Shown here in pieces: positions 16,141-17,999 of a stretch of 19,841 bases of DNA. Where the stretch lies: IMG/VR virus record IMGVR_UViG_2541047915_000006. The stretch is one strand, 5' to 3'. The notes beneath the pieces are model-generated. The model had not been told where the DNA came from and made no database searches. It saw only the letters and a program-made list of their open reading frames with translations. Each line of letters begins with the position of its first letter. Position 1 is the stretch's first letter. This DNA is from a virus. Lineage: Duplodnaviria; Heunggongvirae; Uroviricota; Caudoviricetes. A program made the position numbers and the translations under genes.

Positions 16141-16159
16141 TATGCAATTGTTTACTAAA

Positions 16160-16191
16160 AGTTATTAAAAATGGGGCGTGGAAACGCCCCC
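16160..16191 (-). terminator. Candidate intrinsic terminator for nmpC (minus strand)
   Basis: GGGGCGT-ggaaa-CGCCCC hairpin (16173..16191). T-rich only on the minus strand (ATTTTTAATAACTTTT). Confidence 0.35.
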
Positions 16192-16277
16192 AAAATAAAG
16201 GGTAATATATAACAGAAGGTTTATATAGTAAGAAGCAAGGTAGTGCTTCTAAAGGAAGTGGCTTGAGGGCTCCACTT

Positions 16278-16318
16278 ATATGTTGCGGAGGCAAAGCCTC
16301 CCGCAACATATCTTTTTC
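16278..16318 (+). terminator. Intrinsic terminator downstream of Q (tR'-like, about 178 nt after the Q stop)
   Basis: Long hairpin ATATGTTGCGGAGGC-aaa-GCCTCCCGCAACATAT followed by CTTTTTCG on the plus strand. Confidence 0.55.
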
Positions 16319-16328
16319 GTAAGTCAGA

Positions 16329-17411
16329 TTAGAACTGATAAACCAGACCTACAGCGACGATGTCGTCGGTATCAATACCAGCTGTTTTGGTAAACTTACT
16401 ATCGTCAATTAAGTTGATTTTGTAATCAACAAAAGTGGACATGTTTTTATTAAAGTAGTAAGTAGCACCGACATCGACATACTTGACTAAGTCTCGGTCA
16501 CCATGAACACCAAGGTCTTTACCTTTTGACTGAAGGTAAGCAACAGATGGACGCAGACCGAAGTCAAACTGATATTGTGCTACTGCTTCAAAGTTTTGTG
16601 CTTTGTTTGCAATATGGTTATTACCAAAAACGGTCATATTCTGAGTTTCAGAATATGTGGTAGCCAGATAGATATTGTTCGCATCATATTTCAGGCCTGC
16701 AGCCCATACTTCCGCATTTTTGCCGGAGGCATTGAATTTGCTCTTACCATAGGCGACCTGACCGTCAGTGCGATCTGATTTAGCATAGGTTGCACCCACG
16801 CCGAATCCTTCATACTCATAAGTAGTGGAGAAACCGAAACCATCACCATTGGCTTCAGTTACGTCAGTGCGGTCATTTTTACCCTGATACTGAGCAGCAA
16901 AGTTCAGGCCATCGACCAGACCAAAGAAGTCGTTGTTACGATAAGTTGCAACACCAGTAGTGCGACCAGTCATGAACACATCTGTTTGGGTCCAGGTATC
17001 ACCACCGAATTCTGGCAGAACGTCAGTCCACGCACCGATGTCGTATGCTACACCGTAGTTACGGCCGTAATCGATTGAGCCGTAATCACCAAATTTCAGG
17101 CCTGCAAATGCAAGACGGGTTTTGTCTTTGGAAGAACCTTGAGATTCAGCACGGTTGCCTTTGAATTCATATTCCCACTGACCGAAACCAGTCAGTTGAT
17201 CGTTGATTTGGGTTTCACCTTTGAAGCCAAGACGGGCATAAGTAGTATCACCATCATCTGCATCATTAGAGGAGAAGTAGTGCTTGGCATTAACTTTCCC
17301 GTATAGATCCAGCTTGTTACTGTCTTTATTATAAATTTCAGCTGCCTGAGCAGACATCGCCATCAGTACTGATGCAGCTACAGCAGAAATTGCCACTGTT
17401 AATTTTTTCAT
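16329..17411 (-). CDS. nmpC: Outer-membrane porin NmpC/Lc (OmpC/OmpF family, 360 aa precursor), intact
   Basis: Signal peptide [23 protein letters not shown] followed by [17 protein letters not shown]...; C-terminal ...VGLVYQF. Start taken at the ATG at 17411; the ORF track extends to 17471. AT-rich upstream region. Confidence 0.9.
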
Positions 17412-17837
17412 TGTACGCCCTTTTTTTGAACTATTATTAAAAAATGATGTCACTGCGCGATAAATATTCATCTAATCAATGTGATTATTTCAAGATGTAA
17501 GTTTTAGTTTCTCATTTAATTTGTGAAGTAGATCTCTATTTTTATCTGAACCTTTTCTATCTAATCCTATTCATGGCTCTTGTCTGAACAAAAATAAATC
17601 TATTAGCTAATTTATATTAATGGCACTTATTTATAAGTGCTCTATAATTCTTTAGCTTAATTTAAACAAACTAAAAATAACATTGGAAATTATTAACTGG
17701 TTATTTGTTGAAGTTTTCTTATGCATTTGTGGTGGTGTTTTGAACACTCGGTGGCATTCTCACAAATATCATTTAGTAGTTTACGTACGTAAAAAATTGG
17801 TTATGCTGTTAAGAGTGGTTACTTCGTCACACAGCTT

Positions 17838-17870
17838 AAACCCGCCGTCGAGCGGGTTTTTCCATTTTTT
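17838..17870 (+). terminator. Intrinsic terminator upstream of the lysis cassette (possible tR' of a late leader RNA)
   Basis: AAACCCGC-cgtcga-GCGGGTTT hairpin followed by TTCCATTTTTTG on the plus strand, about 130 bp before the holin ATG. Confidence 0.45.
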
Positions 17871-17999
17871 GAGTCTCGATATTAGCTGATAACCCAATAC
17901 CTGAGTTATTCACTGACTCCGAATCTGTTACGTTTCTGCCTTTATTGCGATACGTAGTATCCCCTTAATTTACACCCGCTTTGTCTGCGAGGTGGGGTT

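Follow-up and report, generated by a model that had tools for sequence, protein, structure and literature searches.

According to the Schnaitman laboratory in the 1970s-80s and to Castillo-Keller et al. in 2006, phage PA-2 reportedly carries Lc, an NmpC-like porin expressed in its lysogens. The tail of the lc transcript is said to carry ipeX, and lysogeny is said to lower OmpC, which is reportedly the PA-2 receptor. PA-2 lc resembles the nmpC gene studied here by its description. Records named 'Escherichia phage PA2' were considered as the lambdoid PA-2 and rejected; they belong to an unrelated Stx phage.

In E. coli K-12, the cryptic prophage DLP12 (qsr') carries nmpC between quuD and essD, on the opposite strand. 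Its promoter, PnmpC, is contained in the 199 bp that precede the ATG, and its start was mapped by 5'RACE to a 'G'. Transcription from PnmpC depends on sigma-70, with Crp as activator and OmpR, IHF and MprA as repressors, and the promoter is active in K-12, giving detectable transcripts (PMC11677980). IpeX is a 167-nt DLP12 RNA that forms part of the porin transcript and represses ompC and ompF (PMC12197685, PMC5069750). In LF82 lysogens, expression of the phage Perceval NmpC gene exceeds the local prophage background about 10-fold (PMC9928086). Furthermore, strain CFT073 induces its nmpC genes at 37 C, as seen in both RNA and protein, with a strong dependence on temperature (PMC12890032).

Here, we analysed a stretch of 19,841 nucleotides (the window), a lambdoid prophage integrated at icd whose sequence is identical to isolate AHB22. 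The host element is a DLP12/Perceval-like lambdoid prophage at icd of B2-type E. coli. Unlike the cryptic DLP12, it still has its head and tail genes; like DLP12, it carries nmpC between the Q gene and the lysis genes on the opposite strand. A prophage at the same icd site in APEC O1 has a Q-nmpC-S module identical to that of the window, and the Perceval module shows 99.4% identity over 98% of it. Counting the module as present where at least 80% of 15700-18250 was found, we detected it in about 2,395 of the 5,426 complete genomes of E. coli searched; 36 phage records carried it as well. The uninterrupted 3' end of the window nmpC allele was present in 1,154 genomes. Thus, the Q-nmpC-S module is ordinary and common in E. 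coli. The porin itself is the well-known prophage porin nmpC (Lc/OmpD-type), already known and annotated: its DNA is 100% identical in APEC O1, S88, ATCC 11775 and others, where it is listed as 'porin OmpC' (WP_000737271.1). The porin module in itself adds nothing new; it is textbook lysogenic conversion, found in a large fraction of E. coli. An earlier reading of this DNA, made from the letters alone (the sequence-only reading), had overlooked the commonness and annotation of the module, as well as the IpeX 3'UTR at 16162-16328.

The nmpC gene is intact and encodes 360 aa on the minus strand (16329..17411), as determined by ORF calling, Pfam, NCBIfam, PDB alignment and comparison with K-12. 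The protein starts with MKKLTV (ORF from 17411 to 16329), and a 380-aa ORF from 17471 merely begins at an in-frame ATG upstream of this start. NmpC matches Pfam Porin_1 (PF00267) with an E-value of 1.9e-151 over profile positions 1-337 of 337, and it passes the NCBIfam 'porin OmpC' subfamily cut-off of 484 with 521 bits. Since the mature OmpC, OmpF and PhoE chains of the PDB align end to end with NmpC from residue 24, residues 1-23 are taken as the signal peptide, cleaved between AQA and AEIYNK (coding part 17343-17411, minus strand). The L3 constriction motif PEFGG is present, the C-terminus is VYQF with its terminal Phe, and no frameshift or stop was found within the nmpC reading frame. By homology to the solved OmpC and OmpF structures, NmpC would form a trimeric 16-strand outer-membrane beta-barrel.

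These observations bear out the sequence-only reading, which had described a complete OmpC-family porin with signal peptide and C-terminal Phe lying antisense between Q and the holin, and had named a frameshift or stop as grounds for giving that up. It had also described the K-12 DLP12 copy as disrupted by an IS element. This is correct: IS5B splits K-12 nmpC 58 nt before the gene end, whereas at the corresponding window position (16386/16387) the sequence continues without interruption and the copy is intact. The window NmpC shares 90.7% aa identity with the IS5-cured K-12 NmpC. The first 147 residues are the same in both proteins, and the differences fall in short internal blocks at residues about 181-190, 219-230, 262-266 and 334-345, which we read, by analogy with OmpC and OmpF, as probable surface loops.

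The 167 nt from the nmpC stop codon to the end of its terminator (16162..16328, minus strand) form a 3'UTR homologous to IpeX, with 93.7% identity to the nmpC-quuD intergenic region of K-12 DLP12 (about 94% for the 3'UTR of the two prophages). The region is strongly structured, with an MFE of -56.6 vs -32.4 in shuffles (z -6.8). Rfam searches of the whole window (gathering threshold) and of 16000-18100 (E<=1) returned neither IpeX nor another credible family; the only matches at E<=1 in 16000-18100 were sau-19 and Trp_leader, at chance level. At the end of this region, the terminator scan identified an intrinsic terminator of nmpC/IpeX (16163..16190, minus strand), GGGGCGU-UUCC-ACGCCCC followed by AUUUUUAAUA. 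Its stem at 16190-16173 with AUUUUU has a dG of -13.8 (z -3.2), and it is kept in K-12 DLP12, phage 434B and E. albertii. A distance of 23 nt separates the end of the terminator from the stop codon of Q.

On the plus strand, a bulged 13-bp hairpin followed by AUCUUUUU occupies 16278..16318 (stem 16278-16311). For the plus strand, its dG is -21.9 kcal/mol (z -6.2); on the minus strand, where it forms the first stem of the IpeX region, the value is -22.5. The hairpin is retained in K-12 with the bulge shifted, and a simple terminator scan missed it because of its one bulge. We regard it as a terminator candidate that would act on unmodified transcription coming out of Q. The scan of the whole window found 4 terminators, compared with 2.4 +/- 1.6 expected from shuffles, and thus no enrichment. 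The case for the three hairpins discussed here rests on their individual stability and their conservation in relatives. All three hairpin/T-run sites that had been listed before (16278-16318 and 17838-17870 on the plus strand, 16160-16191 on the minus strand) do exist by folding.

Upstream of nmpC, the DNA is very AT-rich, as had been noted, with a GC content of 24-27% over 17400-17800. The PnmpC promoter and 5'UTR region was placed at 17412..17610 (minus strand) by identity to K-12 PnmpC, and the two sequences are 100% identical from about -95 to -6. A consensus promoter scan of the minus strand did not find PnmpC hexamers; our candidates are TTGAAA at 17493-17488 and GAATAT at 17469-17464, with a G start near 17453-17458. 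With its own terminator seen in the window and its own promoter predicted through identity to the 5'RACE-mapped K-12 PnmpC, nmpC would qualify as a moron. Near-identical copies are expressed in lysogens (Perceval in LF82, CFT073) and PnmpC is active in K-12, which supports the proposal that the porin is able to remodel the outer membrane of the lysogen.

To the left of nmpC, the Q antiterminator gene (15757..16140, plus strand) encodes a QuuD-type protein of 127 aa (Pfam PF06530, E 6.7e-54). At the aa level, Q is 96% identical to K-12 QuuD; with VT2-Sakai Q, the identity is about 81% up to residue 119, and the two diverge beyond. Its conserved core ends in ...RLDMD at about 16113, and the last 7 codons are unlike Q933W. 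The Q21 structures 6p18 and 6jnx gave a distant match (E 4e-8). To the right of nmpC, we found a phage-21 type lysis cassette S-R-Rz on the plus strand (18000..19170). It comprises an S21-type holin S (18000-18215; Pfam Phage_holin_2_1), a SAR-type endolysin R (18215-18712; Phage_lysozyme) and Rz (18709-19170; Phage_lysis), each also called by PGAP in an identical record, and Rz1 is embedded within Rz (18929-19111, plus strand). Two small ORFs at 16133-16309 (minus strand) and 17683-17889 (plus strand) were dismissed as spurious, as neither matches Pfam and both coincide with parts of RNA or promoter elements.

Between nmpC and S, a BLAST search of 17412-18010 matched about 290 Stx phages at their Q-proximal promoter/terminator region, covering window 17777-17861 only. 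The corresponding region of VT2-Sakai (20704-20787) is the annotated late promoter, qut and terminator, and alignment confirms its match to the window. By this homology, a pR' homolog was placed at 17780..17822 on the plus strand. It consists of the palindrome TTTACGTACGTAAA at 17780-17793 with the -35 TTTACG inside, the -10 TATGCT at 17802-17807, and the conserved initial-transcribed block TAAGAGTGGTTAC at 17810-17822; transcription would start at about A 17814. The Sakai pR' transcript is 258 nt long, with an RNase E cut at +173 between GU and AUU (PMC7547250), and these published facts agree exactly with a start located 7 nt beyond TATCAT. The same pR' element is located upstream of essD in K-12 DLP12 and is also conserved in PhiR29_1 and SfII. 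The initial-transcribed block TAAGAGTGGTTAC is conserved in the five phages aligned. No clear -10-like pause hexamer was identified in the pR' region. A relic of Q933W C-terminal coding sequence upstream of 17777 was considered and rejected, as similarity begins only at the promoter itself.

Scanning and folding revealed a hairpin with a U-run at 17838..17870 (plus strand), which corresponds to about +25 to +57 relative to the pR' start; the hairpin at 17838-17859 plus its T-run has a dG of -12 (z -2.2). Between pR' and S, the window has no other terminator-like site and no second terminator, so we consider it the candidate tR'. Most of 65 pR' variants have a hairpin and U-run at the tR' position, with different stem and loop sequences. 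The mapped 3' end of the Sakai Sp5 pR' transcript, however, is a second terminator at +258 and not the homolog of the 17838-17859 hairpin (PMC7547250), so the efficiency of this hairpin as tR' should not be taken for granted.

The K-12 lysis operon is reportedly under the control of a Q-type antiterminator (PMC7918800). That paper with its supplement, citing Rueggeberg 2015, describes the K-12 amplicon L001 5754-6524 as -121..+650 of the SRRz operon start, which places the K-12 +1 at the equivalent of window 17460 and not 17814. The reverse primer as printed is an inexact match to K-12, and we placed it by eye at L001 6503-6524. By this primer arithmetic, a sigmaE-type promoter candidate was located at 17427..17460 on the plus strand (tGAACTa, 16 nt, TCACT, start A 17460), back-to-back with PnmpC; its resemblance to the sigmaE consensus is our own reading. 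Given the K-12 +1, more than one plus-strand promoter may feed S.

The sequence-only reading had taken 16278-16318 as a tR' candidate and expected Q-modified RNA polymerase to be forced antisense through the porin gene. With pR' directly downstream of Q, the polymerase would cross nmpC to reach S-R-Rz, and collision would silence the porin. This proposal follows the textbook order Q-pR'-tR', and a strong plus-strand hairpin with a T-run does occur 140-180 nt after Q. However, no promoter-like site was found on the plus strand in 16100-16330. The initial-transcribed motif of the family has no copy between Q and nmpC and occurs in this region only at 17810, and the homolog of the mapped pR', with the palindrome that tracks Q, lies to the right of nmpC at 17780-17807. 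In addition, the 16141-16328 stretch is part of the nmpC cassette, as in E. albertii it accompanies nmpC beside a different Q allele. A Q-adjacent pR' is therefore highly improbable, and neither claim was sustained. The gap of about 1.64 kb from the Q stop (16140) to the pR' -35 (17780) is filled by nmpC, and pR' does not directly adjoin the Q 3' end as it does canonically.

Instead, nmpC is most likely an insulated cargo cassette between Q and pR', divergent from the lysis genes, with its own promoter and terminator and with Q acting in trans. The cassette would extend over roughly 16117-17775, between the Q gene and its late promoter. In the lysogen, leftward transcription of nmpC would start at its own sigma-70 PnmpC and end at its own terminator (16190-16163). 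The mRNA would encode a general-diffusion porin, and its 167-nt 3'UTR, as IpeX, would lower OmpC and OmpF, with a porin swap at the cell surface as the predicted net effect. To the right of nmpC, pR' (17780-17807, start about 17814) with the hairpin/U-run at 17838-17870 would be divergent from PnmpC across the spacer of 24-27% GC. Upon induction, Q would act in trans on pR', 1.64 kb from the Q gene, presumably by binding the palindrome in this strain. Late transcription would then proceed into S-R-Rz and onward, nmpC not being crossed, while the plus-strand hairpin at 16278-16318 would stop unmodified polymerase leaving Q before antisense entry into the porin gene. For models of this prophage, it matters that nmpC and the lysis genes most likely form a divergent pair and that Q-dependent antisense transcription probably does not silence the porin; the promoter to target for control of the late and lysis genes would be the one at 17780-17814, not a Q-adjacent one.

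A further antisense route would supplement the cassette arrangement. Upon induction, N-modified polymerase from pR could run through Q, past the 16278-16318 terminator and on across nmpC in antisense, shutting the porin off. An N-type antiterminator is encoded in the prophage, its early right operon is lambda-like and leads into Q, and Q and nmpC are convergent, their 3' ends overlapping by about 150 nt. In lambda, N complexes override intrinsic terminators. We hold this route to be possible, if somewhat doubtful. In particular, a strong terminator added between quuD and nmpC in uninduced K-12 had little effect (PMC11677980), which suggests that read-through from quuD to nmpC is small in uninduced K-12. 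It is unlikely, on the other hand, that nmpC is intact but quiescent, with its AT-rich promoter silenced (for example by H-NS or low temperature) and the outer membrane unchanged under ordinary conditions. The 24-27% GC of the upstream DNA fits such silencing, as do the title of Prilipov 1998, which names nmpC in E. coli B a 'quiescent porin gene', and the strong temperature dependence of expression in CFT073 (PMC12890032). However, the near-identical Perceval copy is expressed in LF82 grown in LB (PMC9928086), protein from the CFT073 copies is detected at 37 C (PMC12890032), and transcripts from PnmpC are detectable in K-12 (PMC11677980).

To place the cassette among related loci, we surveyed 120 IMG/VR contigs with the pR' element, 100 of which had enough upstream sequence to find Q. 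Q and pR' were adjacent in 24 of these; nmpC lay between them in 34 and other cargo in 42. The non-nmpC cargo is mostly antisense and includes candidate anti-phage genes (PDC-S20 KAP NTPase and PDC-M68A HNH-like protein). We found that the type of the pR' -35 palindrome tracks the Q cluster across 98 related loci, with or without intervening cargo. No cargo type in the survey was seen with two different Q clusters, and the association of Q and palindrome could partly reflect linkage. In Lambda_2E9, Q is 87% identical to that of the window and is followed by an antisense lipocalin gene; this locus was set aside, having no detectable pR' homolog within the 5.4 kb examined.

These data lead to a broader proposal, which we judge evenly balanced between right and wrong. 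The -35 palindrome (TTTACGTACGTAAA in the window) would be the allele-specific Q-binding element of one branch of the Q21 family, that of QuuD/Q933W/SfII, and the gap between the Q core and this pR' would be a general hot spot for antisense, self-insulated cargo, with nmpC the commonest. Q would routinely act in trans over 0.6-2.4 kb, and the cargo, unlike stx, would escape late-gene control. The Q-specific palindromes may help to predict Q specificity, which bears on Q/pR' typing of Stx phages, and the cargo hot spot bears on finding prophage-borne defence genes.

Stx phages encode a Q of the same family as the window, with core identity of about 81%, and share the pR' architecture of palindrome, -10, TAAGAGTGGTTAC and hairpin. 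In these phages, however, the Q ORF extends as far as the pR' -35, and their cargo (stx, tRNAs) is sense and downstream of tR', and therefore Q-controlled. The window nmpC is antisense and upstream of pR', and would therefore escape control by Q. No homolog of the functional 74-nt 3' part of the StxS RNA was found in the window. A point against the palindrome as a Q-binding element is its inverted-repeat form, since in the solved Q21 QBE two 8-bp subsites are arranged as a direct repeat.

K-12 DLP12 remains the closest described relative in gene order, with an identical proximal promoter region. The closest porins outside Escherichia are Salmonella OmpD and its Citrobacter and Enterobacter relatives, with 76-81% identity, compared with about 62-65% for OmpC-like loci. 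These closest porins (Salmonella arizonae, Citrobacter, Enterobacter) are encoded at loci without phage genes. Q, S and R are absent within 3.5 kb of the OmpD-type chromosomal loci, which show no similarity to the ipeX 3'UTR or to the AT-rich 5' region. Some annotators have given the name OmpD to phage copies of nmpC.

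The porin gene nmpC occupies 16329-17411 on the minus strand and encodes a 360-aa protein starting MKKLTV; a listed 380-aa ORF is the same frame begun at an upstream in-frame ATG. The protein covers the whole Pfam Porin_1 profile (E 1.9e-151), scores above the cut-off of the NCBIfam 'porin OmpC' subfamily, and carries both the L3 motif PEFGG and a C-terminal YQF. The mature chains of OmpC, OmpK36, PhoE, and OmpF align with it end to end from residue 24, indicating a 23-residue signal peptide (…AQA/AEIYNK). To its left lies the gene for the 127-aa Q protein (PF06530), and to its right are a phage-21-type holin, lysozyme, and Rz/Rz1. 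The DNA upstream of nmpC has a GC content of 24-27%. These results confirm the sequence-only reading on a complete porin gene with a signal peptide between Q and the holin, and on its AT-rich upstream region. That reading was also right that the K-12 copy is disrupted: in MG1655, nmpC lies between quuD and essD in the cryptic prophage DLP12, and IS5B splits the gene 58 nt before its end. The nmpC of laboratory phage 434B is interrupted in the same way.

Between the porin stop and the Q stop lie 188 bp that share 93.7% identity with the corresponding K-12 interval between nmpC and quuD. Counted from the first base past the porin stop codon, the minus-strand terminator ends after 167 nt, and this stretch folds into four hairpins far more stable than shuffled sequence (z -6.8). 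IpeX has been described as a 167-nt DLP12 RNA that is part of the porin transcript from the porin promoter and represses ompC and ompF (PMC12197685; PMC5069750). An Rfam search returned no model matching the IpeX-like 3'UTR. Judged by its sequence, the nmpC 3'UTR in the window is an IpeX homolog, which had been overlooked. An intact nmpC with an IpeX tail would thus form a porin-replacement unit. Phage PA-2, which uses OmpC as its receptor, carries the Lc porin, and porin replacement by Lc has long been described. At the sequence level, we found every feature of a general porin and of a DLP12-type NmpC/ipeX unit, and the module is the already known nmpC/Lc module.

The three hairpin/T-run sites proposed earlier all fold as claimed. 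On the plus strand, a hairpin at 16278-16311 (-21.9 kcal/mol, z -6.2) is followed by AUCUUUUU, and was missed by a simple scan because it is bulged; another at 17838-17859 (-12 kcal/mol) precedes a U-run. The minus-strand hairpin at 16190-16173 (-13.8 kcal/mol) is followed by AUUUUU. The Q transcript (hairpin 16278-16318, plus strand) and the nmpC/IpeX transcript (terminator 16190-16163, minus strand) are convergent, with a predicted overlap of about 150 nt, so the 3' end of the Q mRNA would be complementary to IpeX.

The sequence-only reading had further proposed that Q-modified polymerase crosses nmpC antisense to reach S-R-Rz, a mechanism that hinges on the position of the late promoter pR'. 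Several lines of evidence place pR' to the right of nmpC. A scan of the plus strand between Q and nmpC gave no promoter-like site. A comparison of 17412-18010 against the full set of phage records gave matches in about 290 Stx phages, only at window 17777-17861; in these phages the match falls right where Q ends, at a site annotated with promoter, qut, and terminator. In the alignment with VT2-Sakai, the TTTACG-16 nt-TAT..T promoter is shared, the TAAGAGTGGTTAC block is identical, and the hairpin has the same stem with a different loop. Published mapping of the pR' transcript in the Sakai Stx2 phage gave a primary start, a 3' end 258 nt further on, and an RNase E cut in GU/AUU at +173 (PMC7547250). 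These three positions fit the VT2-Sakai sequence exactly if the start is the A 7 nt after TATCAT, and the homologous window base is 17814. K-12 has the element too, about 160 nt upstream of essD, and it is likewise conserved in PhiR29_1 and SfII. Over its first 119 residues the window Q shares about 81% identity with Sakai Q, and the two diverge thereafter. Whereas the Sakai Q reading frame enters the pR' -35, the homologous promoter in the window is 1.64 kb off, with the nmpC cassette between.

We also examined a further candidate promoter on the plus strand. The '-121 to +650' description and the primers of PMC7918800 correspond to a 771-bp K-12 fragment, and the primer positions put the inferred +1 of the lysis operon at the equivalent of window 17460. 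By our reading, 17427-17460 (tGAACTa, 16 nt, TCACT, then A 17460) is a candidate sigmaE-type promoter, which would stand back-to-back with PnmpC, the nmpC promoter. If sigmaE is active there, lysis-cassette transcription could rise and the porin promoter could face competition. This candidate leaves the main conclusion on pR' and nmpC unchanged. The nmpC start codon is to the left of both candidate starts (17460 and 17814), so transcription need not cross the porin coding sequence to reach S. The observation in the sequence-only reading was right, and the mechanism that it proposed is unsupported.

Taken together, these data suggest that nmpC and ipeX are a self-contained unit of cargo, transcribed leftward, which spans roughly 16117-17775 and separates the Q core from pR'. 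A terminator of its own would halt transcription 23 nt short of Q, and the plus-strand hairpin 16278-16318 would halt unmodified polymerase exiting Q. Antisense interference with nmpC during induction is possible through N-modified read-through from pR. In the cassette model, PnmpC and the lysis-side promoters would diverge across the AT-rich spacer, and the lysogen would make NmpC with the IpeX tail. Upon induction, Q acting in trans at 17780-17814 would take polymerase past 17838-17870 into S-R-Rz. A weakness of this model is that the 3' end mapped in Sakai corresponds to a second terminator rather than the first hairpin, and the window has no second one before S. In the canonical Q cassette pR' adjoins Q, and its separation here is the sole tested departure. 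The cassette fits the definition of a moron. In contrast to stx cargo, nmpC is antisense and upstream of pR', which would put it outside Q control.

IMG/VR was scanned for the initial-transcribed motif, yielding 120 contigs, 100 of which had enough upstream sequence for a same-strand Q homolog. Among these 100, Q adjoins pR' in 24, antisense nmpC (1,639-1,660 bp) parts the two in 34, and other low-GC cargo of 0.6-2.4 kb does so in 42, with the longest ORF antisense in 36 of the latter. The gap from Q to the pR' -35 is a variable site that holds 23 cargo sequence types in the 76 cargo-bearing loci (nmpC and 22 others), the majority of them antisense and low in GC. One type encodes a KAP-family NTPase that matches PDC-S20, a candidate defence family in PADLOC (E 1e-177), and another an HNH-like protein with a match to PDC-M68A. 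Further types carry an alpha/beta hydrolase, a lipoprotein, or, in several cases, pairs of genes without a family match.

The pR' -35 sequence (window 17780-17793; surveyed loci L090-L209) is a short palindrome, of which seven types occur, that varies between Q clusters and is constant within them: TTTACGTACGTAAA for the QuuD type, TTTACGATCGTAAA for Q933W, CGCGTACGC for SfII, GCGGTCCGC for another large cluster, and TGTTATAACA, TGGAATTCCA, and ATTCGTTACGAAT for smaller ones. The QuuD and Q933W palindromes differ solely in the central dinucleotide (TA versus AT). The pairing is the same with Q adjacent or separated, with up to nine cargo types per Q cluster. The palindrome is likely a Q-binding element, although it is an inverted repeat and the solved Q21 site is a direct repeat. 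We take its pairing with Q as evidence for an action of Q at the promoter on the far side of the cargo. Linkage alone could contribute to the pairing, and among the surveyed loci no cargo type was paired with two different Q clusters. Most of the 65 pR' variants have a hairpin and U-run after the conserved initial-transcribed block, with differing stems and loops.

Expression has been reported for near-identical copies of nmpC. In LF82, the genes whose expression exceeds the local prophage background about 10-fold include the NmpC gene of prophage Perceval (PMC9928086), and the Perceval module is 99.4% identical to the window module over 98%. Two nmpC genes of CFT073 show strong induction at 37 C versus 23 C, in RNA and protein (PMC12890032). 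K-12 PnmpC, mapped by 5'RACE at most 199 bp from the start codon, depends on sigma-70; Crp activates it, OmpR, IHF, and MprA repress it, and its strength suffices to drive the IS5 transposase gene (PMC11677980). Upstream of nmpC, from about -95 to -6, the window and K-12 are identical.

A prophage beside icd in E. coli isolate AHB22 is 100% identical to the window, and a window-wide search matched ATCC 25922 at 99.4% identity (coverage 98-99%). In APEC O1, a prophage occupies the same icd site, and its Q-nmpC-S module is 100% identical to the window's. The Q-porin-holin module (15700-18250) is likewise 100% identical in S88, the type strain ATCC 11775, and many ExPEC strains. Of 5,426 complete E. 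coli genomes, 2,395 contain at least 80% of the module, as do 36 phage records, among them Perceval, ev017, the PhiR series, and 434B; the uninterrupted 3' end of the window nmpC allele occurs in 1,154 genomes. K-12 NmpC with IS5 removed is 90.7% identical to the window protein. Residues 1-147 are identical, and the differences form short blocks at about 181-190, 219-230, 262-266, and 334-345, which we read, by analogy with OmpC/OmpF, as probable surface loops. The pattern is mosaic, as expected for phage- or antibody-exposed parts. The closest non-Escherichia porins (76-81% identity; Salmonella arizonae, Citrobacter, Enterobacter) lie in loci without nearby phage genes or similarity to the flanking UTRs, and OmpC-like loci show about 62-65% identity.

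A decayed prophage remnant beside chromosomal genes was seen in E. albertii NBRC 107761 (L027, 231-2667). All that is left of it is bor, an intact nmpC-like porin (89% identity) followed by an ipeX-like 3'UTR, and a Q fragment of a different allele; it has lost the lysis genes. Retention of the bor and nmpC-like surface genes by the host would fit this pattern.

Elsewhere in the window, the Rfam model of the lambda cIII thermoregulator RNA element matches over its full length at 5080-5138 on the minus strand (88.5 bits, E 9e-21). At about 6163-7997, the superinfection exclusion gene sieB is split by ISEc52 (IS3-family), whose transposase is annotated as frameshifted in a record identical to the window; sieB of APEC O1 is intact. 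A Bor homolog (19202-19495, minus strand), named 'increased serum survival lipoprotein Iss' in identical RefSeq records, lies antisense directly after Rz and is a putative second lysogen-expressed surface cargo gene. Directly after bor/iss, a second IS3-family element (19566-19841, minus strand), absent from APEC O1, runs beyond the window end. The lysis cassette and the terminase genes flank it, which places it within the late operon, where it could have polar effects on the expression of head and tail genes.
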